This document shows, in pieces, positions 36,731 to 63,556 of a stretch of 64,000 bases of DNA; positions within the stretch are counted from its first letter, which is position 1, and each line of letters begins with the position of its first letter. The DNA lies in sequence record PZ386958.1. One strand, 5' to 3'. Origin of the DNA: a phage. A model generated the notes under the pieces. The model saw nothing but the letters and a program-made list of their open reading frames with translations, was not told the DNA's origin and searched no databases. Both the position numbers and the translations under genes were made by a program.

Positions 36731-37543
36731 ATGGCAAACAGCATCAATGTAGCACTGAATGGCAAGGTTGTTAAAATTCACACTAAGATTATCAGTGTCG
36801 AGGATTTTCTTAATGAAAAACGTTACAAAGAAAACCCTCGTCAACGAAATACACTTAAGCGTCTGAAAAGCAAACACCTTAATGGTGACGTATCACCAGA
36901 CCAAACAGTAGTTCATGTGGCTAAGTTCGGTAGTTCACTGTTCATCATTGATGGGCACTCACGTCGAGAGGCATGGAAAGTTGGTAACCTGACACGACCA
37001 GAAAACTTGATTGCAGTTATATACCATGTGAACTCCATATTGGATGTCACAGATTTGTACACTCATTTTGACTCTGAGTTAGCAAGAGAAAAACCTTCAG
37101 AAGTTTATTACGGAAATATGAAGATGATTTCTTTCAACCCAGAGTCAGAACTGATGAAAGCATCTTGGGCAACTGCTATTAAGTATGTTGCTGCATATTA
37201 CGGTGTGCAACAAGTCTCTAACACTGAAACAGTTAAATACCTTAATGACTTTAAAAATGAGCTGGAACAAATTGATTCTCTTGAAGTACAGCTTAAAGGT
37301 GTAGTAAACGCAAAACGGAAGTATTCTTCTGGGATTCGTGCAGCAATGTTAATTACACTACGCCTATATGGTGATGCTGCATTTTCCTTTTGGGAAGACT
37401 ATAATGACTACTGTGAAGGTATGTCTAACAAATATGTTACAGAGGCATACCAACTTGCATTACAAGCTGGTCGCGGAGCACAGGCTGATAAGTTGTTGAT
37501 GAATCAAGCGATTTCACTTGTCAACTATTACAGTCAAGAATAA
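36731..37543 (+). CDS. ParB/Srx-like nuclease domain protein
   Basis: 270 aa; FIIDGHSRREAW resembles ParB-type DGxHR motif. Confidence 0.4.
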   Translation: MANSINVALNGKVVKIHTKIISVEDFLNEKRYKENPRQRNTLKRLKSKHLNGDVSPDQTVVHVAKFGSSLFIIDGHSRREAWKVGNLTRPENLIAVIYHVNSILDVTDLYTHFDSELAREKPSEVYYGNMKMISFNPESELMKASWATAIKYVAAYYGVQQVSNTETVKYLNDFKNELEQIDSLEVQLKGVVNAKRKYSSGIRAAMLITLRLYGDAAFSFWEDYNDYCEGMSNKYVTEAYQLALQAGRGAQADKLLMNQAISLVNYYSQE

Positions 37544-42738: not shown

Positions 42739-42827
42739 CACTGATTTTTAGATAGGCTAAATTACACATCAACGGGGAGGGAATGACCTTCCCCACTAAA
42801 TAAAGTCCTAAACTGGAGATTCTGAAA
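42736..42827 (+). repeat. Cassette repeat unit, class B (TTGACA box plus GGGGAGGGAATGACCTTCCCC hairpin plus RBS)
   Basis: TGACACTGATTTTTAGATAGGCTAAATTACACATCAACGGGGAGGGAATGACCTTCCCCACTAAATAAAGTCCTAAACTGGAGATTCTGAAA. Confidence 0.7.
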
Positions 42828-43100
42828 ATGTATACTACTAACAACGGTCGCACCTTAAATGTCACCTTGCGTCACTATGTAGACGGTGTGATGTGCTTTG
42901 AAGATTTACGGGCTGAGCAACACATCTTAAATTGGCAAGTTGCAGGACTCCAAAAAACTGCTACAGGATACGGGAAAAAGATTCCAACCAGTTGGAAAGT
43001 ATACTACGAAGGACGTTTGCGCAGAATTTATCAGGATGTGCAAAGCAATAGTGCATCTAGTTACATCATAGTAAAAGGTAAAAAGCTGCATTTAGTATAA
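42828..43100 (+). CDS. Cassette-array small protein
   Basis: 90 aa. Confidence 0.4.
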   Translation: MYTTNNGRTLNVTLRHYVDGVMCFEDLRAEQHILNWQVAGLQKTATGYGKKIPTSWKVYYEGRLRRIYQDVQSNSASSYIIVKGKKLHLV

Positions 43101-43591: not shown

Positions 43592-43699
43592 AAAAAAAAA
43601 AATTTTGTTGACACTGATTTTTAGATAGGCTAAATTACACATCAACGGGGAGGGAATGACCTTCCCCACTAAATAAAGTCCTAAACTGGAGATTCAAAA
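43589..43699 (+). repeat. Cassette repeat unit, class B (preceded by A13 run)
   Basis: Identical core to 42736-42827. Confidence 0.7.
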
Positions 43700-45168: not shown

Positions 45169-45257
45169 ACAAGCCTGATAAAAATCTGTAAATTATCAAT
45201 CAACGGGGAGGGGATGACCTTCCCCACTAAATAAAATCCTAAACTGGAGATTCTAAA
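45166..45257 (+). repeat. Cassette repeat unit, class B variant
   Basis: ...ATCAATCAACGGGGAGGGGATGACCTTCCCCACTAAATAAAATCCTAAACTGGAGATTCTAAA. Confidence 0.65.
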
Positions 45258-45749: not shown

Positions 45750-45819
45750 AGTAAATTACTAATCAACGGGGAGGGATAACCTCCCTACTAAGTAAAGTCC
45801 TTAAACTAGGAGATTCAAA
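45750..45819 (+). repeat. Cassette repeat unit, class C (GGGGAGGGATAACCTCCC hairpin plus RBS)
   Basis: GTAAATTACTAATCAACGGGGAGGGATAACCTCCCTACTAAGTAAAGTCCTTAAACTAGGAGATTCAAA. Confidence 0.65.
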
Positions 45820-46350
45820 ATGAACAAGTTCAAAGCTATCAACTTCATTCGTTCAAATGCTGTAATGTCAAAGCCTGTTAAAGATACCTATGAATTTCGT
45901 TGCAATGGTGTACACTTTGCAACCATCACTAAATCAGAAAACGGGGCTTATTACGTCCATCGTCGTAATGTTTCTACTGTTGTAGTTTCTCATTTTATGC
46001 AAGCTGTCGCGGAACTTCTCCCGATGTTTTTAGGTCTTTACTTAGATGAGTGTAAAAACGTTCACAACCACGTTAAAAACCTTTTAAACGGTTATAAAAT
46101 GGCTTATGAACGTTCTATCAAGTCACTAAACAAGTTTTACAATGCACCTGAAAATACTGTATCAATAGCCTATGCTGCAAATGGTGAGATGGTAAACTTA
46201 TCCAATGTGGAAGAAATCAAGCTGCATGATTTACGCCCTAGCGGTTACTCTAAGACTCTCGGTGAAGGTTTAACGTTCAATATCAAGAACTTAGAGAAAA
46301 CTTTAAAAGATATTGAAAAAGATATTGACGAGACAACCAAAAATCTGTAA
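45820..46350 (+). CDS. Cassette-array protein
   Basis: 176 aa. Confidence 0.4.
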   Translation: MNKFKAINFIRSNAVMSKPVKDTYEFRCNGVHFATITKSENGAYYVHRRNVSTVVVSHFMQAVAELLPMFLGLYLDECKNVHNHVKNLLNGYKMAYERSIKSLNKFYNAPENTVSIAYAANGEMVNLSNVEEIKLHDLRPSGYSKTLGEGLTFNIKNLEKTLKDIEKDIDETTKNL

Positions 46351-46416
46351 ATTGTCAATCAACGGGGAGGGAATGACCTTCCCCACTAAATAAAGTCCTA
46401 AACTGGAGTTATCAAG
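46346..46416 (+). repeat. Cassette repeat unit, class B
   Basis: CTGTAAATTGTCAATCAACGGGGAGGGAATGACCTTCCCCACTAAATAAAGTCCTAAACTGGAGTTATCAAG. Confidence 0.65.
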
Positions 46417-46680
46417 ATGGAAAACGTAGAATTAACCACACTTTTACAAATTGCAACCGATAAAGAAGACGTAGCTTTATTTCACCGCATCGAAAGTGAT
46501 TTGTTCAATGGTGAAATCATCAAAGAATCTTACGAAGTTGTCGGATTCAAAGACGGTAAAGCGTTTGGCTTTTTTGACCTCGACAAAGGCAAAGCGGTTA
46601 CAAAATATGATGTTTTATCTTGTGAAATTCTGACAAAATACAACGAAAAAAGGCTTGCAACATACGCCAATATGCAGTAA
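46417..46680 (+). CDS. Cassette-array small protein
   Basis: 87 aa. Confidence 0.4.
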   Translation: MENVELTTLLQIATDKEDVALFHRIESDLFNGEIIKESYEVVGFKDGKAFGFFDLDKGKAVTKYDVLSCEILTKYNEKRLATYANMQ

Positions 46681-46746
46681 ATTACTAATCAACGGAGAGG
46701 GATAACCTCCCTACTAAGTAAAGTCCTTAAACTAGGAGATTCAAAA
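46678..46746 (+). repeat. Cassette repeat unit, class C
   Basis: Near-identical to 45750-45819. Confidence 0.65.
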
Positions 46747-46995
46747 ATGGCAACTATCCGCGCAACTGTCAATGCTTATGGCTGTTATACTCTGGATGTT
46801 AAATTCGATATTGGTGGGACTGACGAGTGTTTTTCATTAGTGAAGACAGTTATCAAGCAAGTTATCCCAGATTATAACCCTACTGATGACTTCTGGAAAG
46901 ACGCCGTAAAAGAGGCATTAAACGACGAGCATCACTATCATTACTGGGGTGACTTGATTATCTCACTGTACTACAATAAACAAGGTTACAACTAA
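46747..46995 (+). CDS. Cassette-array small protein (last gene of rightward block)
   Basis: 82 aa. Confidence 0.4.
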   Translation: MATIRATVNAYGCYTLDVKFDIGGTDECFSLVKTVIKQVIPDYNPTDDFWKDAVKEALNDEHHYHYWGDLIISLYYNKQGYN

Positions 46996-47002
46996 TCGAC
47001 GC

Positions 47003-47060
47003 AGCGGGGCTAAATAGCCCCAGATACCTGAACAGCCCCTATTTAAAGGGGCTTTTTTAC
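47003..47060 (+). terminator. Tandem hairpins ending in T-run (cggggctaaatagccccag ... cagcccctatttaaaggggctttttt)
   Basis: Two GC-rich stem-loops, second followed by TTTTTT. Confidence 0.55.
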
Positions 47061-48720
47061 GTCTATGTAATAACCTCTATACAATCCCTTTCCTTTCCTT
47101 TCCAGAATCTATCCCACTAATTCGATAGAATCTATCTCGTACCTTAAAAAGCAATAACTCTATAGTCTACTCTATAACCTTTTATCAAATCAACTTAAAT
47201 ATAAGCCCATAACCCGAAAGGGAAGGGCAACCGTTTAAACGCTCTATAAAGCCCTATAACAGCCTTATCAACCTAACTTAAGGGATTGCATTAACTCACC
47301 CTTAAAAGCTCTTTACAGGGCTTTATAGAGGCTTAAAAGAATCTTATAAGGTTATAAGCTTTATTATCTCGTTAGTATCTTGTGAATATCTAAAAAGGGC
47401 TTGTTAGTGTCTTAAAAGTATGTTATAGGGGCTTAAAAGTTACTTTGAAGTAGCTTAAAAGTTACGTAAAAGGGGCTATAAAGTTACGTAAATACTAGCC
47501 CCCTTAACATTTTCTTAACAATTTCTTAACAAACCCTACATAGTTATACTTTTAAGGCACTTGTTAGCAACTTGTTAGCCCCTTGTTAAATCTCTGTTAA
47601 GACCACGTAAAAGCCTTGTAAGAGTCTTTGACATAGCCTTTAAAGCTCCTGTAAAGCCCTATAAAGAGCTTTCTTCATAGTTGGGGTGTAATTACTAGGA
47701 AGAGGCTTAAAAGAGCTTACAAAGAGCTATAGAGAGCTTTTAAGAGGTATGTTTAGAGAATCACTAAGAGGGAAAGGGAACGATAAGAAAAGAGATAGTG
47801 ACCATGTTAACAGCTTGTTAAAAAGATTAAACACTTGTTAGAAACTTGTTAATTATCTTAATTGGTATTGTTACCAATCCCTACAAAATAACTCTTAAAA
47901 ATTAACTTGTTAGCTCTTGTTAGTCATCTGTTAAGATTCTGTAAAGACTATGTATCAACTGTTAAGAAACTGTTACACCCTTGTTAGTTCTGTTAAGAAT
48001 CTGTTAAGACCTTTGAAGAGTTGTTAAGAAGGTGTGAGAACTGTTAAGAGATTGTTAATGATATTTTAAAATTTTGCAAAGGGGGTGTTAAGGAGCTGTT
48101 AAGGGCTACCAAGCAGATATACATCTTCTACAGATATTTTTCAGTTCCTTCAAAGACCATAAAAAATGACTTGACAGTCTTATTTTATAAAAATTTTAAG
48201 ATTCTGAATAATTACCTATACAGTCTTTCAAAAATACAGGTAGGAACAGGCTTATAAGATACCTTGTTAGTACCGTGTTAGACCTTGTGAGATAAGGTCT
48301 GTAAAGATATTCCTGTTAAGTTTATTAAAACAGTCTATATAGAGGCTTAGTAATACCTAGTGAACAACTATAGAGAGTCACATAGCTAACCTAATGGGTT
48401 ACTGTTAAGTAACACAGGTAACCTAGAGATTAAGAGGTGTATAGGAGCTTCTAAGAGGCTATAGAGAGATGGTTAAGGTGATTGTATAGGTTGTTAAGAA
48501 GGCTTGTTAGAGGGCTTGTTAGAAGGGTTATACAGAGGGCTATTAAGACCACTAGATAGCTACTAAGATACTATATAGTACTATATAACTATATAGAGAG
48601 TAAGATTAAGAAGGTTGTTAAGAAGGATAGATATTTTGTTCACATATGATGGTGACCCAGAGGTTGGGACAACCGATAAAATTTTATAAAAAATATAAAT
48701 TTCGTAAATTTTACTCAATA
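47061..48720. repeat. Non-coding repeat-dense region: 30 or more degenerate copies of (C/T)TGTTA(A/G) plus purine-rich AGAG/TAAGAG and TATATAG runs
   Basis: No ORF of 60 aa or more on either strand; motifs CTTGTTAG, CTGTTAAGA, GGGCTTAAAAGTTAC recur throughout, often in tandem. Confidence 0.6.
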
Positions 48721-48754
48721 AAAAGCCCCCAATTAAGGAGGCTCTTAAGATATT

Positions 48755-49348
48755 TTAAATCAGTGTTTCCAGAACTGTTTTTAGGGATGACTTAGTTGTC
48801 TGATAAAAATGAGTAAAGCCATTGTTGTTATCAAATACCTGCATCATGATATCATCTCCCTTGATTGGGTACACTCGGATATCATAGTGAAAACCACTAA
48901 AGACAGTAGAACCATTACAGAACACACTAAAATCACTTGCTGAGATATACTCTTCATGACCTGTGATTTTTATACAGACACCTTTACTCGGTCTCTTAGG
49001 GTTGATATCTTCCATAATAGACATACTCTGTCCACCAAGAGATACCATAGTGACCACTTTACGGTTCTTCTGTTTAAAGTACATTTTAACTTTCTGTAAA
49101 GTACCTTCATAGAACGGATAAGACTTCTCTACAAAGATTCCTTCAAGTGGCTCTTTACCATTTTTAACTTCTCTGATATGTCTTACTGAGAAGACAAGCT
49201 GCTCTAGTATGTCAAGGCTTTCTTTGGATAATGCTTCTCGAACATCACTCCAGTCAAGGACTAGGTAGTTACCTTCAACTTCTTTTAAGTTATCTTTTTC
49301 CATATCTATCACACCATTATCGTAAAACTTGGTAAGCTGGTACTGCAA
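48755..49348 (-). CDS. Hypothetical protein
   Basis: 197-aa ORF; last gene of leftward block. Confidence 0.4.
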   Translation of the reverse strand: MQYQLTKFYDNGVIDMEKDNLKEVEGNYLVLDWSDVREALSKESLDILEQLVFSVRHIREVKNGKEPLEGIFVEKSYPFYEGTLQKVKMYFKQKNRKVVTMVSLGGQSMSIMEDINPKRPSKGVCIKITGHEEYISASDFSVFCNGSTVFSGFHYDIRVYPIKGDDIMMQVFDNNNGFTHFYQTTKSSLKTVLETLI

Positions 49349-49781
49349 ACTTGTTGCTATTGTTCCTAATAAGGTCTTCTTCTGTTACTAAGAATGTAAT
49401 CCCACATAAGTGCGTATAGTGGCTGTCATACTCGAATATTTTAAGTAAGTATTTACCATCATGATAAACAGATTCTACTACACCTTTTGCAACAATCTTT
49501 CCAGTCTTGAAGTCTTTAAGAGGGTATGTATTACCAATTTTAGGGACTGTTTTCATCTCAGGTTCTTTTAGTTTCTCACCAGCTTCTACATCACCTAGTA
49601 AGTGAGAACTTTCAAATGCTACATATTGCATATAAGCTTCTGAGCATTCCCAAATAAAGCAATGTACAAGAACCTTAGCAGCATGTCTTGAACAGTTCAA
49701 CTTATCACAAATTTCTGTGTACATTTCATCTTTAGTTGAGTTGTCAAGCATTGCTTTTTGGACTACTTCTTTAATTTTCAT
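49317..49781 (-). CDS. Hypothetical protein
   Basis: 154-aa ORF. Confidence 0.4.
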   Translation of the reverse strand: MKIKEVVQKAMLDNSTKDEMYTEICDKLNCSRHAAKVLVHCFIWECSEAYMQYVAFESSHLLGDVEAGEKLKEPEMKTVPKIGNTYPLKDFKTGKIVAKGVVESVYHDGKYLLKIFEYDSHYTHLCGITFLVTEEDLIRNNSNKFAVPAYQVLR

Positions 49782-50199
49782 AAGCTCTCCGAATAACCCT
49801 ATTAAGCATCTCTAAAGTCAGCTTTCCAGACTCTAAATGTGGCATAACAAGCTTTAAAGCTTTTTCAACATCATGCACAACATCTATTATACCTTCTTCA
49901 TAGGCTTCTACAAGGATATCTTTTACGTTTTGTGGATTACCTTTTTGTGGTATCACTAGGCACATATCAAACTCATTTGCTTGAGGATGGTTCTTACCTT
50001 GCCAATAACCGTCTTTGTTAAAGCTGATGTAGTCACCGTGGTAAAAGTGTACACCATTAGCTTTAAACTTCTCCAGCACAAGGCATTGAATTGGGTATTC
50101 AGTATTCCACTCCCTGACTCCTATAACCTTCACTGTTGCGATGTACTCCTGTGTTTTTGCATCTATGATGTCAAGTTCTTGACCAGCTATGATTTGCAT
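49771..50199 (-). CDS. Hypothetical protein
   Basis: 142-aa ORF. Confidence 0.4.
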   Translation of the reverse strand: MQIIAGQELDIIDAKTQEYIATVKVIGVREWNTEYPIQCLVLEKFKANGVHFYHGDYISFNKDGYWQGKNHPQANEFDMCLVIPQKGNPQNVKDILVEAYEEGIIDVVHDVEKALKLVMPHLESGKLTLEMLNRVIRRAYEN

Positions 50200-56655: not shown

Positions 56656-57027
56656 ATGAAAAACAGAACAAACAAAGGCCAGTTTAAAAAAGGCCAGTCT
56701 GGAAACCCATCTGGAAGACCAAAAGGCTCTCGTAACAAAAGCTCACTCGTAAAAGCTCAACTGACCATTGATAATTCTGCTGAGTTTGCTGCAAAGTTGT
56801 TTGAAGCGATTGTTACAAGGGACGCTGCTAAGCTTGCAGAGTTCGGTTTGACGACTGACGATGTAAACCTGAAGTCGATGATGGAAGCTGGTAAAACTAT
56901 CATGACCCACTCAGCAGGTGAGATGAAAGCAATTGCAGCAGACACTAAGAAGACCCCTGATAATGGTGGTCAGTCTCAGACAGATAACAAACCAACGTTC
57001 TCTGCTGTAGCGACTCTCAAAAAATAA
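56656..57027 (+). CDS. Small protein with AT-hook-like motif (KGQSGNPSGRPKGSRNK)
   Basis: 123 aa; GRP core in basic, glycine-rich N-terminus. Confidence 0.4.
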   Translation: MKNRTNKGQFKKGQSGNPSGRPKGSRNKSSLVKAQLTIDNSAEFAAKLFEAIVTRDAAKLAEFGLTTDDVNLKSMMEAGKTIMTHSAGEMKAIAADTKKTPDNGGQSQTDNKPTFSAVATLKK

Positions 57028-57109: not shown

Positions 57110-58486
57110 ATGAGCGAATTATTTAAACATGCGCACCTTCATGCAGGTCGAACTGAAAATGGTGCTGTAAACCATACTTCATCAATGTCTGCTCTTGTAG
57201 ACTTTTACAAAGCTGCTGGTTCAAGCCGTAGCAACGTAGAAATCTTACCAGACCTGTTCTACAAAGCTTTGCGTGAGGATGTTGATGTTGCAGTTCGTAT
57301 TTTGCTTCATATGCGAGATGTGCGAGAAGGTATGGGTGAGCGTAAAGCCTTCAGAACTGTTTTGCTTCAAGCAATTGAAGATAAAGTTTTAGAGCCTACA
57401 CAGGTTCTTCGCATTATGGATAAGATTGCAGAACTTGGTCGTTTTGATGACTTCAAAATCTTCGTAGGTACTCGTTTCGAGACGGATGCCTTCAAACATT
57501 TAGAAGCAGCATTACTAGACCCTGCAACAGCAGGTTTGGCAGCTAAGTGGTTACCACGAGTCAAACCACGTCATAAGCAGTTTGTAAAACGTTTCTGCAA
57601 GTTTGCCAACTTGAGTGAGAAAGAGTACCGCACACTGTTATCTGCACTGTCTGATACAGTTGAGCAAAAAATCTCTGCTAATGAGTTTGGTAAGATTGAC
57701 TACAGCAAGATTCCTTCACTTGCTGCTGCACGTTACCAAAAACTGTTTAACCGTAAAGATGGAGAACGCTACAAAGCTTATATTGAGTCTTTATCAAAAG
57801 GTGAGGCTAAGATTAACGCTGGTGCTGTTTACCCATACGATGTGATTAAGTCTATCAAGCATGGTAATGCAGATGTTGCCAATGAGCAGTGGAAAGCACT
57901 ACCAAACTGGATGGCAGAAGGTGAGAACATCTTGTGTATGACTGATGTTTCAAGCTCAATGTCTTGGGTGAATCTTGGCTCAATCACCGCCCTTGATATT
58001 GGTGTATCACTTGCCTTGTATGTAGCAGAACGCAATACAGGCTGCTTTAAGAATGAGTTAATGGTTTACTCAACAAACCCTCACTTCATCGAACTGAGTG
58101 GTGATTTACGAAATCGTCATCGTCAGGTGATGCGACACGTTGAATATGGTTCAACTAACTTACAAGCAGCTTTTGACCGCATTCTTGAGGTAGGTAAGAG
58201 AAACAACTTGACTCAGAAAGATATGCCAAGTAAGCTTATTATCTTCTCTGATATGGAGTTCAATCAGGTTGATGGTGCAAATGGTCGTACAAACTTTGAA
58301 GCAATTCAGAGTAAGTACAAAAAAGCTGGATACGAAATGCCTCAACTGGTATTCTGGTACTTAGCAAACCGTAATGGTACTTGCGAAGTGTCTGTTAAGG
58401 ATAACGGTGTAGCAATGGTATCAGGGTTCTCTCCAGCCACTTTAAAAGCTCTGCTTGGTGGTGAGAAGTTTGACCAATCAGCGTAA
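57110..58486 (+). CDS. von Willebrand factor A (vWA) domain protein with N-terminal helical domain (possible TROVE/Ro60-like or DUF2828-like)
   Basis: 458 aa; MIDAS motif DVSSS in LCMTDVSSSMSW; N-terminal 270 aa helical; directly upstream of tRNA cluster. Confidence 0.45.
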   Translation: MSELFKHAHLHAGRTENGAVNHTSSMSALVDFYKAAGSSRSNVEILPDLFYKALREDVDVAVRILLHMRDVREGMGERKAFRTVLLQAIEDKVLEPTQVLRIMDKIAELGRFDDFKIFVGTRFETDAFKHLEAALLDPATAGLAAKWLPRVKPRHKQFVKRFCKFANLSEKEYRTLLSALSDTVEQKISANEFGKIDYSKIPSLAAARYQKLFNRKDGERYKAYIESLSKGEAKINAGAVYPYDVIKSIKHGNADVANEQWKALPNWMAEGENILCMTDVSSSMSWVNLGSITALDIGVSLALYVAERNTGCFKNELMVYSTNPHFIELSGDLRNRHRQVMRHVEYGSTNLQAAFDRILEVGKRNNLTQKDMPSKLIIFSDMEFNQVDGANGRTNFEAIQSKYKKAGYEMPQLVFWYLANRNGTCEVSVKDNGVAMVSGFSPATLKALLGGEKFDQSA

Positions 58487-58689: not shown

Positions 58690-58766
58690 CTCTGTTTAGC
58701 TCAGCTTGGTAGAGCGTTCCGTTTGGGGCGGTAAGGCCGGAGGTTCAAGTCCTCCAACAGAGACCA
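58690..58766 (+). tRNA. tRNA-Pro (anticodon TGG)
   Basis: Acceptor CTCTGTT/AACAGAG, T-arm GGAGG-TTCAAGT-CCTCC, loop TTTGGGG, 3' CCA encoded. Confidence 0.6.
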
Positions 58767-58773
58767 AATTAAT

Positions 58774-58851
58774 GTTCCAGTAGACAAAATGGTATAGTCA
58801 CCACTCTTTCAAAGTGGATATCTGAGGGTTCAAATCCCTTCTGGAACGCCA
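58774..58851 (+). tRNA. tRNA-Glu (anticodon TTC)
   Basis: Acceptor GTTCCAG/CTGGAAC, anticodon stem CCACT/AGTGG loop CTTTCAA, T-loop TTCAAAT, CCA encoded. Confidence 0.6.
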
Positions 58852-58857
58852 GTTTTG

Positions 58858-58931
58858 ACAGAAGACCAATTACAGCAAACTTAATCTTATTCATCTGAAG
58901 GTAAATCGGACAAAGAAGAGATTTGGTCTGG
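58858..58931 (+). ncRNA. Bracket stem-loop element a (ACAGAAGACCaatTACAGCAA ... tTTGGTCTGG)
   Basis: 5' AGACCAA pairs with 3' TTGGTCT; conserved TACAGCAA; one of four copies with compensatory changes. Confidence 0.45.
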
Positions 58932-58942
58932 TCATTAAGAAT

Positions 58943-59019
58943 TGCGGGTATAGAGAAAGGGCGTCTCACATGTCTCATTAGCATGGTATCGGCAGGTTCG
59001 ACTCCTGCACCCGCCTCCA
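58943..59019 (+). tRNA. tRNA with CAT anticodon (Met or Ile-lysidine)
   Basis: Anticodon stem CATGT/GCATG loop CTCATTA; T-arm GCAGG-TTCGACT-CCTGC; 1-72 mismatch; CCA encoded. Confidence 0.5.
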
Positions 59020-59024
59020 AATTT

Positions 59025-59090
59025 ACAGAAGACCGTTTACAGCAATATTTATTAAATTTTTAGCGGAAAAATTGAAAGATACGGTCTGGT
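59025..59090 (+). ncRNA. Bracket stem-loop element b
   Basis: ACAGAAGACCGTTTACAGCAA ... ACGGTCTGG; AGACCGT pairs with ACGGTCT. Confidence 0.45.
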
Positions 59091-59102
59091 AATACTAAAC
59101 AT

Positions 59103-59179
59103 GGTTAGGAAGCACATAAGGTATGTGCGGTCGCCTGTTAAGCGAATGGCACAGGGTTCGAATCCCTGACTAACCGCCA
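59103..59179 (+). tRNA. tRNA-Asn (anticodon GTT)
   Basis: Loop CTGTTAA; T-arm CAGGG-TTCGAAT-CCCTG; acceptor 3' ACTAACC-G-CCA. Confidence 0.55.
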
Positions 59180-59248
59180 AATTTAGGAGAGAAGCGATTG
59201 CTCACCGATTTGTAAGGTGCAAGTCCTTAGCCTGAATAGAAATTAAAT

Positions 59249-59336
59249 GTGTCGTTATCCCGTAGATGGTAGCGGTGGGGACTGTAAATCCCTTGTCATT
59301 GAGACTCGGTAGGTTCTACTCCTACACGGCACACCA
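59249..59336 (+). tRNA. tRNA-Tyr (anticodon GTA), long variable arm
   Basis: 88 nt; anticodon stem GGGGA/TCCCT loop CTGTAAA; acceptor GTGTCGT/ACGGCAC; CCA encoded. Confidence 0.55.
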
Positions 59337-59341
59337 ATAAA

Positions 59342-59419
59342 GGTTATGTAGTTTAATTTGGTTAAAATACTCCCCTGTCACGGGAGATGATGAGGGTTCA
59401 AATCCCTTCGTAACCGCCA
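59342..59419 (+). tRNA. tRNA-Asp (anticodon GTC)
   Basis: Anticodon stem CTCCC/GGGAG loop CTGTCAC; T-arm GAGGG-TTCAAAT-CCCTT; CCA encoded. Confidence 0.6.
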
Positions 59420-59450
59420 ATTTTGAGAGGGCTATTTAGCCCCTCCCTTA

Positions 59451-59478
59451 AATGGTTCTTACGAGTATCCTTTAAAGG
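59451..59478 (+). ncRNA. Conserved small hairpin GGTTCTTACGAG(T/A)(A/G)TCCTT(T)AAA (copy 1)
   Basis: Second copy at 62447-62474. Confidence 0.3.
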
Positions 59479-59480
59479 AG

Positions 59481-59553
59481 CAGAAGACCAAATACAGCAA
59501 GAACGTATGAAATTTCAAGCCAATTTAATTTTGAAAATTTAAACTTGGTCTGG
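59481..59553 (+). ncRNA. Bracket stem-loop element c
   Basis: CAGAAGACCAAATACAGCAA ... CTTGGTCTGG. Confidence 0.45.
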
Positions 59554-59565
59554 CTCAACAAATTT

Positions 59566-59698
59566 ACAGAAGACCGTCTACAGCAAAACTTAAACAATCT
59601 ATTTCTCCGGTAAAGAAAAGGCGAAGGTTCGATTCCTTCACTCGGCAGATGTCGAGTTGGTGTAATGGTAGCACTTAAGATGATAAACAACGGTCTGG
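59566..59698 (+). ncRNA. Bracket element d enclosing a permuted tRNA-like module (T-arm, acceptor-like hairpin, D-arm); candidate Y-RNA-like ncRNA
   Basis: Closing stem AGACCGT(C)/ACGGTCT; inside: GAAGG-TTCGATT-CCTTC, hairpin ACTCGGC-AGAT-GTCGAGT, then TGGTGTAATGGTAGCAC; no anticodon arm. Confidence 0.45.
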
Positions 59699-59701
59699 TA
59701 A

Positions 59702-59841
59702 TTATCTTTGTAGATAAGTTATTAAGCTTACCTGTGAGTATGCGACCACAAAGGGTGAAAGGGTAAATTCTAGATTTAAACCCAAAAAGGCACATCGCTA
59801 CAGACCTTAAGCAAGTCTGGGTAGCTTATCTACAAAGATAA
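59702..59841 (+). ncRNA. Structured element closed by a perfect 17-bp inverted repeat (TTATCTTTGTAGATAAG / CTTATCTACAAAGATAA)
   Basis: Enclosed ~106 nt has internal hairpins (CAGACCTTAAGCAAGTCTG; AGCTTACC...GGTAGCTT); no ORF. Confidence 0.4.
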
Positions 59842-59847
59842 TTTAAT

Positions 59848-59923
59848 GGAAGTGTAGCAGAATGGTGATGCGGCAGACTTTTAATCTGACAGGCGATGGG
59901 TTCGAATCCCTCCACTTCTACCA
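59848..59923 (+). tRNA. tRNA-Lys (anticodon TTT)
   Basis: Acceptor GGAAGTG/CACTTCT; D-loop AGCAGAATGGTGATGC; loop CTTTTAA; T-loop TTCGAAT; CCA encoded. Confidence 0.55.
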
Positions 59924-59927
59924 AAAT

Positions 59928-60004
59928 GGTTCAGTCGCAGATAAGGTAATGCAGGGGTCTCATAAGCCCTATGAATGTGGGTTCGATTCCCATCTGAACC
60001 TCCA
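59928..60004 (+). tRNA. tRNA with CAT anticodon (second copy; Met or Ile-lysidine)
   Basis: Acceptor GGTTCAG/CTGAACC; anticodon stem GGGGT/GCCCT loop CTCATAA; T-loop TTCGATT; CCA encoded. Confidence 0.5.
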
Positions 60005-60006
60005 AT

Positions 60007-60081
60007 TGTGGGTTAGCATAAATGGTAATGCAAACGGCTGATAACCGTTAGAAGAGGGTTCGATACCCTCACCTACAACCA
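60007..60081 (+). tRNA. tRNA-Ile (anticodon GAT)
   Basis: Anticodon stem AACGG/CCGTT loop CTGATAA; T-arm GAGGG-TTCGATA-CCCTC; CCA encoded. Confidence 0.6.
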
Positions 60082-60095
60082 ATTTCAATAAAGTT

Positions 60096-60130
60096 GTTGA
60101 CATTAAGATGTGACTACTTTATAGTAACCT
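60096..60130 (+). promoter_or_regulatory. Sigma70-like promoter inside tRNA cluster (gttgacattaagatgtgactactttatagtaacc)
   Basis: TTGACA - 17 nt - TATAGT. Confidence 0.5.
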
Positions 60131-60328
60131 TAGTTTTCGTTGCGTAGCGTCTATTTTGCAAATTTAAAATAAATGCAAACGACAATGTTTTTCTGGCAGT
60201 AGCTTGATAGGCTAAACACCAGTGAGGTCTTCCAATCCCTCATCAAAGAATTTGGCGTACTCGCCCACGGTATGATTAATAAGGTGGGCATCTTTAAGGG
60301 CTTTCTAAGAGAGTCTTTAAAGATTAAT

Positions 60329-60403
60329 GCTCCGTTAGTCTAAAGGATAGGCATCTGTCTTCTAAACAGATTGATATAGGTTCGAGTCCTATACGGAGTG
60401 CCA
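60329..60403 (+). tRNA. tRNA-Arg (anticodon TCT)
   Basis: Acceptor GCTCCGT/ACGGAGT; anticodon stem TCTGT/ACAGA loop CTTCTAA; T-loop TTCGAGT; CCA encoded. Confidence 0.6.
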
Positions 60404-60519
60404 TATTTAGAGTGTCTCCAAATGGAGGTGGTCTGTATCTCATGTTTTCCAGAACATGTAAATAATCTGAGAAGGGGCTTTACAGTGTTGAGATAATACG
60501 GTAAGCTTCGAATTATAAT

Positions 60520-60602
60520 ATGGGACGATGTTAAGACTCTAAGGCATGAGCAACGGCTTCCAACACCGTTTCAAAGGGGTTCAACTCCTCCGTCCCATGC
60601 CA
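60520..60602 (+). tRNA. Atypical 83-nt tRNA (possible anticodon CCA, Trp) or tRNA-like gene
   Basis: Acceptor ATGGGAC/GTCCCAT and T-arm AGGGG-TTCAACT-CCTCC clear, CCA encoded; D/anticodon region too long and folds ambiguously. Confidence 0.35.
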
Positions 60603-60615
60603 AAGTCTTATTAGG

Positions 60616-60703
60616 GGTAGGTAGCGGCTAATGGTAGCCAAACTGTCTTGAAAACAGTTGCCACTGTAGAGATACGGTGAGGGTTCGACTCCTTTACTTA
60701 CCG
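60616..60703 (+). tRNA. tRNA-Ser (anticodon TGA), long variable arm; CCA apparently not encoded
   Basis: Anticodon stem ACTGT/ACAGT loop CTTGAAA; long extra arm; T-arm GAGGG-TTCGACT-CCTTT; acceptor 3' ACTTACC-G then CCT. Confidence 0.45.
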
Positions 60704-60859
60704 CCTAATAAGATTTTAAAGCCAAGCTTCATTCGGATGTTGCTTTGGCATCCCTCGTGTTGTCGTACACACTAATAAAGCACCTAGTAGGTGTCATGGA
60801 GAAGAGATAATATCAAGCTCTCCAAAGGTTCTAGTCACCGGATTAAACAAGACTATGCA

Positions 60860-60880
60860 AAGACCAATTTAGGTCTTTTT
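60860..60880 (+). terminator. Hairpin plus T-run (aagaccaatttaggtcttttt)
   Basis: Stem AGACC/GGTCT followed by TTTTT within tRNA cluster. Confidence 0.45.
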
Positions 60881-60959
60881 AGAGGGCTTCTAAGGTTATT
60901 ACAGCTTGTTGTGGAACCTTGTTGCTTAGGTTCTTAGAAGTTCTCTAAAAAGATTTAAT

Positions 60960-61036
60960 GCACCTATAGCCCAACTGGTAGAGGCAGCAGACTTAGAATC
61001 TGCTCAGTGTGAGTTCGAATCTCTCTAGGTGTACCA
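60960..61036 (+). tRNA. tRNA with anticodon TAG (Leu-decoding), short variable arm
   Basis: Acceptor GCACCTA/TAGGTGT; anticodon stem GCAGA/TCTGC loop CTTAGAA; T-loop TTCGAAT; CCA encoded. Confidence 0.45.
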
Positions 61037-61043
61037 AATTAAT

Positions 61044-61119
61044 GCAGGTGTAGCAGAATGGTGATGCGGCTGACTCTTAATCAGTAAGACGATGGGTTCA
61101 ATTCCCTCCACCTGTACCA
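61044..61119 (+). tRNA. tRNA-Lys (anticodon CTT)
   Basis: Paralog of 59848-59923; loop CTCTTAA; acceptor GCAGGTG/CACCTGT; CCA encoded. Confidence 0.55.
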
Positions 61120-61125
61120 AACATT

Positions 61126-61201
61126 GGGGATGTAGTTTACATGGTTAAAACATAAGTTTTGCAAACTTAAGTACAGGGTTCAATTCCCTGCTTCTCCACC
61201 A
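61126..61201 (+). tRNA. tRNA-Ala (anticodon TGC)
   Basis: Anticodon stem TAAGT/ACTTA loop TTTGCAA; G3:U70 wobble in acceptor; T-arm CAGGG-TTCAATT-CCCTG; CCA encoded. Confidence 0.55.
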
Positions 61202-61207
61202 ATTAGT

Positions 61208-61282
61208 GCATCCATAGTTTAAACGGGAAAATTACAGTCTTCCAAACTGAGGTTGAGGGTTCGATTCCCTCTGGATGCTCCA
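61208..61282 (+). tRNA. tRNA-Gly (anticodon TCC)
   Basis: Acceptor GCATCCA/TGGATGC; loop CTTCCAA; T-loop TTCGATT; CCA encoded. Confidence 0.6.
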
Positions 61283-61288
61283 AATAAA

Positions 61289-61365
61289 GCTGCTTTCGTA
61301 TAATTGGCTATTACACATCCCTTGTAAGGATGGAAATGCAGGTTCGAGTCCTGTGAGCAGCACCA
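61289..61365 (+). tRNA. tRNA-Thr (anticodon TGT)
   Basis: Acceptor GCTGCTT/GAGCAGC; anticodon stem CATCC/GGATG loop CTTGTAA; T-loop TTCGAGT; CCA encoded. Confidence 0.6.
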
Positions 61366-61367
61366 AT

Positions 61368-61455
61368 TCAGAGGTCAAGTGAAAGACCGCTGGTGTCAAC
61401 TGAAGACCGTAACAAATTCCACGGAGTTGAGTTAGCGGCACAACTTCAGACCTCT
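61368..61455 (+). ncRNA. Structured non-tRNA element with nested stems (CAGAGGTC...GACCTCT outer stem)
   Basis: Inner pairs TCAACT/AGTTGA and CCGCTG/AGCGG; contains bracket-like GAAGACCG; no ORF. Confidence 0.35.
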
Positions 61456-61460
61456 TTCAC

Positions 61461-61541
61461 ACTCGCTTAGTTTATATGGTAAAACATCACCCTTACAAGA
61501 TGAAGATGAAGAAAAAGGTTCAAGTCCTTTAGTGAGTACCA
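61461..61541 (+). tRNA. tRNA-like gene, atypical (possible anticodon TAC, Val) with enlarged variable region
   Basis: Acceptor ACTCGCT/AGTGAGT, T-arm AAAGG-TTCAAGT-CCTTT, CCA encoded; anticodon stem has a C-A mismatch. Confidence 0.35.
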
Positions 61542-61542
61542 T

Positions 61543-61620
61543 GTTCCAGTATCCCAATTGGCAGAGGATGCAAGCTCAAACCTTGTATTAGTGACGGTTC
61601 GAATCCGTCTTGGAACACCA
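61543..61620 (+). tRNA. tRNA with anticodon CAA (Leu-decoding), short variable arm
   Basis: Acceptor GTTCCAG/TTGGAAC; anticodon stem GCAAG/CTTGT loop CTCAAAC; T-loop TTCGAAT; CCA encoded. Confidence 0.45.
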
Positions 61621-61638
61621 ATTTAAAGAGGCTATTTA

Positions 61639-62196
61639 ATGAGATATTTGAAGTACGCTTCATGGATTTTCTTAGCTTTACTAGACCCAATTGCAGCAAC
61701 CCTAGCAGTTATCTTAGCACCTTTCGTAGTTCCATTCTACAGTGAAAAGAAAGGACACTTACCTTTTGGATTCAGATGGATGGAGACTTATGACAACCCG
61801 ATTGATGGTGATGAAGGCCACGTTAAAAGATGGGCTAAGATTAGAAAGATTGGTAAGCTTGGTGTCTACATGCAGAGAGTTGGATGGCTCTGGAGAAACA
61901 AAGCTTATAACTTCTCTTACCATGTATTAGGAAGAGATGTAAAAGATGTTACTAAGTGGAAAGGTAATATCAACGTAAGTTCTAACCCTGAAGATAATCA
62001 GACTGGTTATCTCCTAATGTGGAACAGTAATGCTTGGGGATTATTCGCTTTTATCCCATCAATTAAAGTCTTTGGTAAACAGTTTTACTGGAGAATTTAT
62101 ATTGGATGGAAACTAAAAAGTGTTGTCCCAGAAGAAAGAGCATTCTCAAGGGAAAGAGTTATGTTGGCATTCTTTATTCATCCACTGAGAAAGTAA
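61639..62196 (+). CDS. Membrane protein embedded in tRNA cluster
   Basis: 185 aa; hydrophobic N-terminus WIFLALLDPIAATLAVILAPFVVPF; flanked by tRNA genes. Confidence 0.45.
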   Translation: MRYLKYASWIFLALLDPIAATLAVILAPFVVPFYSEKKGHLPFGFRWMETYDNPIDGDEGHVKRWAKIRKIGKLGVYMQRVGWLWRNKAYNFSYHVLGRDVKDVTKWKGNINVSSNPEDNQTGYLLMWNSNAWGLFAFIPSIKVFGKQFYWRIYIGWKLKSVVPEERAFSRERVMLAFFIHPLRK

Positions 62197-62204
62197 AGAT
62201 TTAA

Positions 62205-62280
62205 AGGGGATTAGTTTACAAGGTTAAAACCTCGGTCTTTGAAATCGAAGAAGTTGGTTCAATTCCAACATCCCCCGCCA
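62205..62280 (+). tRNA. tRNA-Gln (anticodon TTG)
   Basis: Anticodon stem TCGGT/ATCGA loop CTTTGAA; T-arm GTTGG-TTCAATT-CCAAC; 1-72 mismatch; CCA encoded. Confidence 0.5.
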
Positions 62281-62282
62281 AT

Positions 62283-62361
62283 GCTCCATTACTCCAATTG
62301 GCAGAGAGGCCAGACTTAAAATCTGTGTTATGTATCGGTTCGAATCCGATATGGAGTACCA
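62283..62361 (+). tRNA. tRNA with anticodon TAA (Leu-decoding), short variable arm
   Basis: Acceptor GCTCCAT/ATGGAGT; loop CTTAAAA; T-arm ATCGG-TTCGAAT-CCGAT; CCA encoded. Confidence 0.45.
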
Positions 62362-62366
62362 AATTT

Positions 62367-62442
62367 AGCGGTATAGCATAACTGGCAATGCAGCAGTCTC
62401 TGAAGCTGTCTTATTAAGGTTCAAATCCTTATGCCGCTGCCA
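62367..62442 (+). tRNA. tRNA-Gln (anticodon CTG)
   Basis: Acceptor AGCGGTA/TGCCGCT; loop CTCTGAA; T-arm TAAGG-TTCAAAT-CCTTA; CCA encoded. Confidence 0.5.
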
Positions 62443-62446
62443 CTTC

Positions 62447-62474
62447 TAAGGGTTCTTACGAGAGTCCTTAAATG
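62447..62474 (+). ncRNA. Conserved small hairpin TAAGGGTTCTTACGAGAGTCCTTAAATG (copy 2)
   Basis: Stem TAAGG/CCTTA; same loop as 59451-59478. Confidence 0.3.
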
Positions 62475-62549
62475 TGGCCTTATCATAAATGGTAATGACC
62501 CATGCTGTGAACATGGTCTATACGGGTTCAAATCCCGTAGGTCACCCCA
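62474..62549 (+). tRNA. tRNA-His (anticodon GTG)
   Basis: Acceptor GTGGCCT/AGGTCAC; anticodon stem CCATG/CATGG loop CTGTGAA; T-arm ACGGG-TTCAAAT-CCCGT; CCA encoded. Confidence 0.6.
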
Positions 62550-62554
62550 ATTTA

Positions 62555-62631
62555 TAGTCCAAGTAGCTTATATGGTTAAAGCGCGTGTCTGAAAAACATG
62601 AGAAGAGGGTTCAAATCCCACTGGACTACCA
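62555..62631 (+). tRNA. tRNA-Phe (anticodon GAA)
   Basis: Anticodon stem CGTGT/ACATG loop CTGAAAA; T-loop TTCAAAT; acceptor AGTCCAA/CTGGACT (one mismatch); CCA encoded. Confidence 0.5.
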
Positions 62632-62647
62632 ATTTCAAAGGTGCTTA

Positions 62648-63382
62648 ATGAAAGAGATGACAGAACAAGGTAAGGAGATTTTTAATCTCTTAAAAACCGG
62701 TAGAGGGTTTTCTAATCCCCTTATTACTGGTGCAGCAGTTCTAGGTGGAACCGTGGCTGCCTCTACATCACTTGTAAGCTCTATTAGCTCTGTAACAGAC
62801 CCTACAATAAAGGATAAACTTATTGCTGCTGGACTTACAACAGTTCTGCTTAATAGCTTTACAACGAGTCTGACAAGCACTACATCAACTACTAAGACCC
62901 TAACAGACTATGGTCAAAAGTCTATTGATGAGTTTTCATCACGTATGCAGGTAGCAAAGGGATACTCCAATGTTATGGGTGCAGCAGGAGAACAAGTCGG
63001 TTGTACACCATTCAGTGGTATTATGGGTGTTGCTACAGAGTATGGTCAAAAAGCTATTGATATGATTAACAGTGCACTAGACGGTGTTAATGATGTATTA
63101 AGTGACTTACAAGACGCTATTGACAAAGGTCTTGATACTATTTCTGATTTAGCTAACCAAGCTGTTAGTAAGATTAATGAAGGTATCTCGAAGATTACAG
63201 CTTATGCAGATGAAGTTGTGCAGATGATTGAAGAAGAAGCTGCCCTTATTGCAGAGTACCTTAAAACGAATATCAATGGGTTCTTAGCAGGTATCTTACC
63301 AGACTGGTTTGATGATGCTTGTAAAACTGGTGTAATTGATACTATTGCAACACCAGAAATGAAGAACGCATTACAGAAATAA
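62648..63382 (+). CDS. Hypothetical protein embedded in tRNA cluster (Ser/Thr-rich N-terminal region)
   Basis: Start MKEMTEQGKE chosen downstream of tRNA-Phe (track ORF 62585 would overlap the tRNA); about 244 aa. Confidence 0.45.
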   Translation: MKEMTEQGKEIFNLLKTGRGFSNPLITGAAVLGGTVAASTSLVSSISSVTDPTIKDKLIAAGLTTVLLNSFTTSLTSTTSTTKTLTDYGQKSIDEFSSRMQVAKGYSNVMGAAGEQVGCTPFSGIMGVATEYGQKAIDMINSALDGVNDVLSDLQDAIDKGLDTISDLANQAVSKINEGISKITAYADEVVQMIEEEAALIAEYLKTNINGFLAGILPDWFDDACKTGVIDTIATPEMKNALQK

Positions 63383-63383
63383 T

Positions 63384-63476
63384 GGAAGATTAACCCTAAA
63401 AGGTAAGGGAGCAGTTTGCTAAACTGCCAGTAGCTGAGAAATCGGTGTACCAGTTCAAGTCTGGTATCTTCCTCCA
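63384..63476 (+). tRNA. tRNA-Ser (anticodon GCT), long variable arm
   Basis: Acceptor GGAAGAT/ATCTTCC; anticodon stem GCAGT/ACTGC loop TTGCTAA; long extra arm; T-arm ACCAG-TTCAAGT-CTGGT; CCA encoded. Confidence 0.55.
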
Positions 63477-63480
63477 ATTT

Positions 63481-63556
63481 GAATCCGTGACAGAAATGGC
63501 TATGTGCCTGTCTGCAAAACAGGTTTATAAGGGTTCGAGTCCCTTCGGATTCTCCA
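63481..63556 (+). tRNA. tRNA-Cys (anticodon GCA)
   Basis: Acceptor GAATCCG/CGGATTC (perfect); anticodon stem CCTGT/ACAGG loop CTGCAAA; T-arm AAGGG-TTCGAGT-CCCTT; CCA encoded. Confidence 0.6.

Follow-up and report, generated by a model that had tools for sequence, protein, structure and literature searches.

What occupies a stretch of phage DNA that appears to encode nothing? The question is raised by a 1.7-kb region at positions 47061-48754 of a 64,000-nucleotide stretch of phage DNA (sequence record PZ386958.1; the whole stretch is referred to here as the window). An initial annotation, made from the letters alone, described this region as a gene-free gap at the convergence of two transcription blocks, saturated with short degenerate repeats, and offered a replication origin, a partition site, a packaging site, or a protein-binding array among the explanations. 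Here, we argue that the region is rather likely to hold the genome ends (concatemer junction) of a Felix O1-like myovirus, whose DNA would be packaged with short exact direct terminal repeats (DTRs), and we weigh this reading against the others that the repeats suggest, of which binding of the host response regulator ArcA is the most substantial.

Repeats and predicted genome ends in the gap

The region is as free of genes as first described. No open reading frame (ORF) of at least 60 amino acids is present in 47061-48754 on either strand, and the longest ones comprise 30 to 49 amino acids. The convergence of two blocks was borne out as well, as the region sits between two terminators. The rightward gene block stops at 46995 and is followed by tandem hairpins and a T-run, and the leftward block ends at 48755, next to a terminator-like minus-strand hairpin at 48726-48740; both are transcribed toward the region, each stopping at its terminator (Table 1).

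The repeats, too, proved to be far above chance. The motif (C/T)TGTTA(A/G) occurs in 26 plus-strand and 3 minus-strand copies, a density of 15.3 per kb compared with 0.4 to 0.5 per kb in the rest of the window. For TGTTA(A/G), 29 occurrences were seen against 2.0 ± 1.4 (maximum, 7) in 500 first-order Markov simulations. This motif is strongly strand-biased, and three of its four minus-strand copies fall at 47504-47531. Self-identity at a lag of 11 bp reached 0.394, compared with 0.271 ± 0.014 in 27 control windows, and echoes of the period appeared at lags of 21-22 and 32 bp. The period is present in every sub-region at 11-12 bp, with a spectral peak at 11.0-11.75 bp. Tandem Repeats Finder (TRF) likewise reported 11-bp arrays, the longest of which spans 47926-48058 with 12.8 copies, and 13 successive TGTTA cores are spaced by exactly 11 bp. 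The other units named at the outset were all found: those of the GGGCTTAAAAGTTAC type at 47425-47490, 12-bp purine-rich units at 48491-48548, and, at 48569-48597, the TATATAG block. Overall, degenerate ~11-bp units with a TGTTA(A/G) core are arrayed over the full 1.7 kb.

The source phage is a Felix O1-like myovirus of the genus Felixounavirus: the region has matches in 257 phage records, nearly all of them Felixounavirus, at up to 90% identity. The initial annotation had pointed to the physical genome ends as informative, and the termini of related phages indeed fall inside the region. Both ends of the Pr103Blw record are annotated with a 581-bp “short direct terminal repeat” that was determined with PhageTerm (PMC8303462), and phage CRP22 has an exact 579-bp copy at both record ends. 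Both DTRs align to 47498-48110. When this interval was used as a query, it was found at 269 places in 241 records, which corresponds to 28 extra copies. Several records open at the counterpart of base 47498 and repeat their opening sequence at the opposite end, and further records start or stop exactly at the boundaries. Because related virion DNA starts at the homologue of G47498 and ends at the homologue of C48110, the 613 bp between these bases would be present at both ends of the packaged genome.

Restriction data on a relative are consistent with this placement. In phage UAB_Phi87, the Bal31-sensitive SpeI fragments measure 4322 and 2819 bp (PMC4837284). In an in silico SpeI digest of the UAB_Phi87 genome, only the 6568-bp fragment that contains this locus can give a terminal pair of that sum, and ends placed at the homologous boundaries predict fragments of 4435 and 2747 bp. 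The large terminases of UAB_Phi87 and Felix O1 group with DTR-type terminases (PMC4837284); the window stops short of the large-terminase gene of the present phage. The more distant Hafnia phage SPARTY (Kolesnikvirus) has a 439-bp exact DTR that begins GCCACTTTTACA... and ends just before AAGCAGATATAC. The Felixounavirus DTR begins GCCCCCTTAACA... and ends just before the same AAGCAGATATAC, so that the boundaries are homologous, and conservation around both cut sites extends across genera. Among the interpretations offered at first, those of a packaging site and of a protein-binding array therefore point in the right direction, because the terminal repeat and both cut sites of relatives map inside the region, while those of a replication origin and of a ParB partition site were not supported (see below). 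The identity of the locus as a terminal repeat and concatemer junction is in itself ordinary and is already contained in the database annotations of some relatives.

Relative to these ends, the repeats are arranged in an orderly manner (Table 1). The left terminus begins at G47498, and the right terminus finishes at C48110 (...GTTAAGGGCTACC). The first 35 bp of the DTR contain the three minus-strand TGTTAAG units, and its last 25 bp contain two plus-strand units that end 8 bp from the right terminus; units thus point outward at both boundaries, and between the boundaries nearly all units lie on the plus strand. The left arm is built of ~11-bp units of the CT(A/T)(T/A)AAAG / GCTTAAAAG type and includes three AAGTTAC elements 22 bp apart at 47440-47490. 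We also observed large imperfect inverted repeats that straddle the left DTR boundary (47305-47339 with 47638-47672, 86% complementary; 47427-47462 with 47548-47583, 78%), for which a role in cutting or in duplication of the repeat is conceivable.

Table 1. Positions of the features of the repeat region, its borders, and the candidate small-terminase gene within the window
Feature	Position	Strand	Details	Basis
Two tandem terminator hairpins, rightward block	47006-47058	+	GGGGCTAAATAGCCCC at 47006-47021; second hairpin at 47034-47053, then T-run	Sequence and terminator scan; rho-independent terminator annotated in AYO145A
Left unique non-coding arm, 437 bp	47061-47497	+	Just inside the right-end DTR copy in virion DNA	Lag-11 identity 0.397; repeat families
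DTR equivalent, 613 bp	47498-48110	none		Alignment of the DTRs of Pr103Blw and CRP22
Three TGTTAAG units 11 bp apart	47504-47532	-	Outward-pointing, 6 bp from left terminus	Strongest ArcA-box matches
Four TGTTA units	47560-47601	+	Exact 11-bp spacing (47562, 47573, 47584, 47595)	17.9 bits at 47583 (ArcA matrix)
Five TGTTA units	47803-47875	+	Spacings of 11, 20, 11, and 22 bp	16.1 and 17.2 bits (ArcA matrix)
Longest array, ~17 units of ~11 bp	47906-48103	+	CTTGTTAG / CTGTTAAGA; reaches right terminus	TRF and core positions
AAGCAGATATACA	48111-48123	+	Directly outside right cut site	Identical in Felixounavirus, Mooglevirus, and Kolesnikvirus
Most conserved block	48150-48365	none	AT-rich stretch, three ACAGTCT, five phased TGT(T/G/A)A units at 48265-48318	Conservation profile, alignment
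Right unique arm (~640 bp in all), repeat units	48400-48640	+	Purine-rich 12-bp units (GTTAAGAAGG / GTTAGAGGG) and three ACTATATAG	TRF rows 48491-48597; lag-12 identity 0.399
Terminator-like hairpin, leftward block	48726-48745	-	88% invariant columns	Terminator scan; terminator annotated in AYO145A
123-amino-acid DUF5681 ORF, candidate small terminase	56656-57027	+	Outside the repeat region	Pfam DUF5681, E = 7.8e-14

The region is retained among relatives. In a sensitive search, 206 records covered at least 80% of it, and the possibility raised by the initial annotation, that related genomes might lack the sequence, therefore does not apply. In Felix O1, the region corresponds to the gap between ORF23 and ORF24; the Felix O1 genome paper has the gene blocks 97-131/1-23 and 40-24 ending at this gap and does not discuss the gap itself. 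Careful annotations of related records mark only terminators or a “repeat_region” at the locus, and our literature search found no paper that describes it. Among 17 distinct relatives, substitution conservation in the region is about that of the flanking genes, and positions 48150-48350 are ~95-100% conserved across 17 Felixounavirus loci, above the flanking genes. The block at 48150-48365 is largely kept in Citrobacter phage Moogle (Mooglevirus). Gaps are frequent among relatives, and the lengths of the insertions and deletions cluster at 11 bp (5 events), 22 bp (6 events), and 33 bp (2 events), which indicates that units are gained and lost with their phase kept.

The same organization extends beyond the reach of most alignments. 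At the corresponding point of convergence, Erwinia phage phiEa104 (Kolesnikvirus) has 1429 bp of gene-free DNA that shares the core motif and the 11-bp period, and 47997-48123 is the only stretch that BLAST can still align with the Erwinia and Hafnia phages. In Kolesnikvirus, the TGTTA core is kept inside the DTR, and the left arm is built of CTTCTAAG units. Between genera, the left-arm motif changes while the TGTTA core of the repeat zone stays. The left arm of phiEa104 consists of ~11-bp units with a (C)TTCTAAG core, compared with CT(A/T)(T/A)AAAG in Felixounavirus.

A proposed role in packaging and a candidate small terminase

Phages with terminal repeats, as exemplified by T7, replicate as concatemers that are processed by terminase cleavage at fixed sites and by duplication of the repeat. 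By analogy, terminase of the present phage would cut the replicated concatemer at both DTR boundaries, and the DTR would be duplicated during processing. The helically phased units could then serve as a scaffold that binds protein along one face, marking the junction and positioning the cuts. Their most likely binder would be the phage's own packaging-initiation protein, for which the product of the DUF5681 ORF, a candidate small terminase, may be proposed; phosphorylated ArcA (ArcA-P) of the host would be a second possible binder.

The closest known architecture is the T7 junction. The T7/T3 concatemer junction, with its 160-bp repeat and adjacent arrays of short repeats, was reportedly described by Dunn and Studier in 1983 and by Chung, Son, and Hinkle in 1990. 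We read the T7 ends directly and found a 160-bp terminal repeat followed by ~14 (C/A)(C/T)TAAAG heptamers with a 13-bp period at 176-356; three heptamers lie inside the terminal repeat, and more precede its right copy. Common to the two systems are thus a short exact DTR and, within it and shortly past its end, short direct repeats that share one orientation. They differ in period (~11 bp here, 13 bp in T7) and in motif, and the arrays here cover 1.7 kb, contain more than 30 core copies, and extend on both sides. Whereas the T7 zone has promoters, both neighboring gene blocks converge on the zone described here, and the terminases of T7 and of Felix O1-like phages are unrelated in detail. Iterated short motifs are also found at the terminase cut in the P1 pac hexamers, the lambda cosB R sites, and SPP1 pacL/pacR, where they are thought to wrap an oligomeric small terminase. 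Like the arrays studied here, these are repeated short motifs that flank a cut site; however, they occupy ~100-250 bp, number 3 to 7 motifs, and serve headful or cos packaging instead of exact DTRs.

The candidate small terminase is encoded at the head of the late operon. In an alignment, the N-terminal GNPSGRPKGSRNK motif of DUF5681 proteins was nearly invariant across the family, and we take this motif to be AT-hook-like. In a distant phage contig, the DUF5681 gene and the start of the large-terminase gene overlap; in a prophage-like contig, the gene context is compatible with a small terminase, and in Felix O1-like genomes a tRNA island lies between the DUF5681 ORF and the large-terminase gene. 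The model of the monomer consists of a disordered basic N-terminal arm and two long helices (predicted local distance difference test [pLDDT] score, 67.5), and no solved relative was found by sequence. A similar small protein with an N-terminal GGRP motif, PaoP5_049, which begins MTQERNKGGRPTN, is encoded at the same genomic position in the Pseudomonas relative PaoP5. The Felix O1 paper, which likens the Felix O1 portal to gp29 of phage Mu, states that no small terminase could be found. In the window, the DUF5681 ORF is directly followed by a 458-amino-acid ORF (57110-58486, plus strand) with DUF2828 and DUF7788 domains and the PHROG label “RNA-binding protein,” and then by the tRNA island, whose 25 tRNA genes (58690-63556, plus strand) lie downstream of the DUF5681/DUF2828 genes, before the window ends.

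Several points weigh against the packaging reading. The published UAB_Phi87 fragments differ from the predicted ones by 72 and 113 bp, and the UAB_Phi87 GenBank record (NC_027360.1) puts its end duplication, of exactly 542 bp, elsewhere, in the tRNA region. The ends of the GenBank record could be ruled out, as they imply SpeI fragments of 1134 and 16247 bp, unlike the 4322 and 2819 bp seen with Bal31. For the isolate studied here, the positions of the ends are predicted by homology with related phages. The arrays run ~440 bp and 640 bp past the DTR, which is more than known pac sites need, and the binding of a protein to the units, as well as their need for packaging, is what we infer. The DUF5681 protein is a candidate whose small-terminase role is suggested by gene position and a medium-confidence model. 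Finally, the presumed junction of PaoP5 has neither 11-bp arrays nor TGTTA pairs, which informs the question without deciding it. As PaoP5 nevertheless has the GGRP protein, a terminase of this candidate type would not require the arrays, which would therefore be a feature of the enterobacterial lineage and not of this terminase type in general. The presumed PaoP5 junction contains several palindromic motifs of the GATAGCTTCGCTATC / CGAAAGC type.

One apparent end was set aside. Salmonella phage PC79-13 (OR687644.2, marked circular) has a record end near the right boundary; its 127-bp identical record ends are typical of an assembler k-mer overlap and not of a terminal repeat, and this record was not used as evidence.

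Resemblance to ArcA boxes and other readings

The units bear a close resemblance to the binding sites of a host regulator. E. coli ArcA-P binds direct repeats with a TGTTA core spaced 11 bp center to center, the minimal site being ATGTTAAAAA-1-ATGTTAAAAA (PMC4173790, PMC3798270). Natural sites comprise 2 to 5 repeats spaced by 11 or 22 bp and bind with higher affinity as repeats are added (PMC3798270, PMC4173790). A second reading, which we hold only tentatively and which could coexist with a role in packaging, is that the arrays are binding sites for ArcA-P. The regulator might act there as an architectural or end-capping host factor or as a sensor of oxygen state, or the arrays might be a DNA sponge that titrates ArcA-P during infection.

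To score the resemblance, a matrix was built from the 115 boxes bound in chromatin immunoprecipitation (ChIP) that are readable in the published Table S3, and the 15-bit cut-off of Park et al. was applied. Two overlapping boxes at 47504-47532 scored 22.7 and 22.5 bits, above the best training site (21.5 bits). Six sites of at least 15 bits were present in the region and one in the other 62 kb, while dinucleotide shuffles gave a mean of 0.14 and a maximum of 2. Exact TGTTA-N6-TGTTA pairs occur 14 times in the region and nowhere else in the window, and no PhoP-, PhoB-, or CpxR-type pairs were found. The complete UAB_Phi87 genome gave a similar picture, with 14 of its 16 TGTTA-N6-TGTTA pairs inside one 750-bp interval at the DTR. 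Felix O1, wV8, UAB_Phi87, Moogle, and two Kolesnikvirus phages each have 6 to 9 boxes of at least 15 bits; their sequences differ, and the pattern is kept. The box at the left terminus scores 22.5-23.4 bits in Felix O1, UAB_Phi87, wV8, and Moogle and 19.7-20.3 bits in Kolesnikvirus; Mooglevirus and Kolesnikvirus retain boxes of 20-23 bits despite turnover of the surrounding sequence.

The phage itself does not appear to supply such a regulator. We found no OmpR-family domain in the complete UAB_Phi87 genome or in the window, and a phage-encoded OmpR/ArcA-like domain was rejected because tblastn of both with ArcA, PhoB, and OmpR sequences returned nothing below E = 4. A weak match in the ORF at 49771-50199 had no Pfam support. 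The lack of TGTTA pairs at the presumed PaoP5 junction also favors ArcA, and Pseudomonas is not known to have an ArcAB system. In addition, disruption of arcB scored as Felix O1 resistance in a Salmonella randomly barcoded transposon sequencing (RB-TnSeq) screen (PMC8744999). The authors of that screen, however, explain the arcB hit by RpoS activity, and they do not report arcA (PMC8744999).

Other features argue against ArcA. The units in the phage have additional conserved flanks (CTTGTTAG, 10 copies; CTGTTAAG, 9 copies), and a G directly after TGTTA is rare in ArcA boxes, with two visible examples in Table S3 (ygbE and msrB). The arm units CTATAAAG, CTATAGAG, and TATATAG are not ArcA-like. 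ArcA sites normally overlap promoters, whereas promoter-like sites here number 12, against 7.4 ± 2.8 in shuffles, and none is strong. Felix O1-like phages are routinely grown aerobically, when ArcA-P is low, and our literature search found no paper linking ArcA to these phages. Compared with the E. coli ArcA-P operators of icdA, astC, and acs (Park et al. 2013, 2014), the arrays share the TGTTA core, the center-to-center distance of 11 bp, and extra repeats at 11 or 22 bp, and their matrix scores equal or exceed those of the best chromosomal E. coli sites. The chromosomal sites, in contrast, comprise 2 to 5 repeats that overlap promoters, while the phage array has at least 30 putative units with extra C...G flanks and lies at DNA ends, with no promoter. 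Judged from sequence, the ends of Felix O1-like genomes might be the densest natural array of ArcA-P boxes known, with a three-repeat site stronger than any on the E. coli chromosome, although we consider this doubtful.

An origin of replication, in which the phased repeats of the region or of the block at 48150-48365 would serve as iterons beside an AT-rich unwinding element, appears improbable. Direct repeats do lie beside an AT-rich stretch (48180-48215), as in the iteron origins of plasmids and phages, where direct repeats in helical phase adjoin such a stretch, and the block at 48150-48365 is conserved above the flanking genes and has no other assigned function. However, iterons are usually 17-22 bp long and few, with an initiator gene nearby and DnaA or IHF sites common, and none of these traits was found here: more than 30 units of 11 bp are present, 47000-48800 contains neither a DnaA-box nor an IHF consensus, and no initiator-like gene was found adjacent, the flanking ORFs having no Pfam match. 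The cumulative GC skew has its maximum, not its minimum, at 44-50 kb; the minimum lies near 8 kb at the divergent early/replication genes. The skew test is weak because skew here also tracks the direction of transcription. The origin first proposed was thus not supported.

It is quite improbable that the arrays act at DNA entry, either as a pause or stop in ejection like the injection-stop region of T5 or by loading a protein that shields the ends from RecBCD. Outward-pointing units do come to within 6-8 bp of each terminus, and the DTR end is the first or last DNA to enter the cell. Two-step ejection is not known for Felix O1-like phages, though, no nicks or T5-like features were seen, and the sequence offers nothing that separates this reading from packaging.

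Very improbable, finally, are two readings in which the repeats are either functionless products of slippage and unequal recombination in a transcription-free gap or a partition site of the ParB/parS type. Repeat copy number does vary between relatives, as neutrality would have it, but substitution conservation equals that of the flanking genes, and the core motif, the 11-bp phase, and the pattern of orientation persist in three genera although just 117-127 bp align between the most distant members. Partition had been suggested by a putative ParB-like gene at 36731-37543 (plus strand). This ORF showed no similarity to ParB, with no Pfam match, only PHROGs of unknown function, and chance matches in the PDB, and the repeats are direct and strongly strand-biased, not palindromic.

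Three further candidates were rejected. Against hidden coding stand the ORFs, which reach only 30-49 amino acids, and the insertions and deletions among relatives, which step by 11, 22, and 33 bp, not in multiples of 3. A cluster of promoters was rejected, as the sigma-70-like sites counted above are not clearly more frequent than in shuffles; a TTGACA at 48172 has no usable -10 element and reads TTGATA in Felix O1, UAB_Phi87, wV8, and SP116. A structured RNA was rejected because an Rfam search at a permissive threshold returned a single sub-threshold chance match, and folding of the conserved block at 48150-48365 gave no significant RNA structure (z = -1.5 and -0.6).

Within the rightward block, outside the gap, we observed at least six copies of a ~70-bp intergenic module (42758-42830, 43631-43699, 45188-45257, 45750-45821, 46347-46408, and 46676-46746). 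Its layout is GTAAATTAC..ATCAAC, a hairpin GGGGAGGGAATGACCTTCCCC, GGAG, and ATG, and it corresponds to a 39-bp repeat, TTGACA-N17-TAAATT, already reported in Felix O1. The modules are probably cassettes of an early sigma-70 promoter and a leader.

Implications for Felix O1-like phages

For annotation, the consequence is that an unexplained gap can be read as the place of the genome ends, with the termini predicted to the base at 47498 and 48110. The Felix O1 reference and most other Felixounavirus records were opened elsewhere, and the region was left blank or given spurious small ORFs. In addition, a candidate small terminase can now be named for a group that was said to be without one. In T7, repeat arrays beside the terminal repeats have been known for decades, and their function is still unsettled; those described here are larger than the T7 arrays, strictly helically phased, and conserved across three genera.

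If ArcA does bind the units, this would be a new link between phage and host, in which a global redox regulator is recruited to, or soaked up by, the ends of viral DNA. ArcA might then serve as an architectural or end-binding factor in the processing of genome ends. Alternatively, the arrays might act as a multicopy sponge that titrates ArcA-P and so derepresses respiratory metabolism in the anaerobic gut. Several such phages are used for biocontrol, typing, and therapy of Salmonella and E. coli, and their behavior in the anaerobic gut is therefore relevant.

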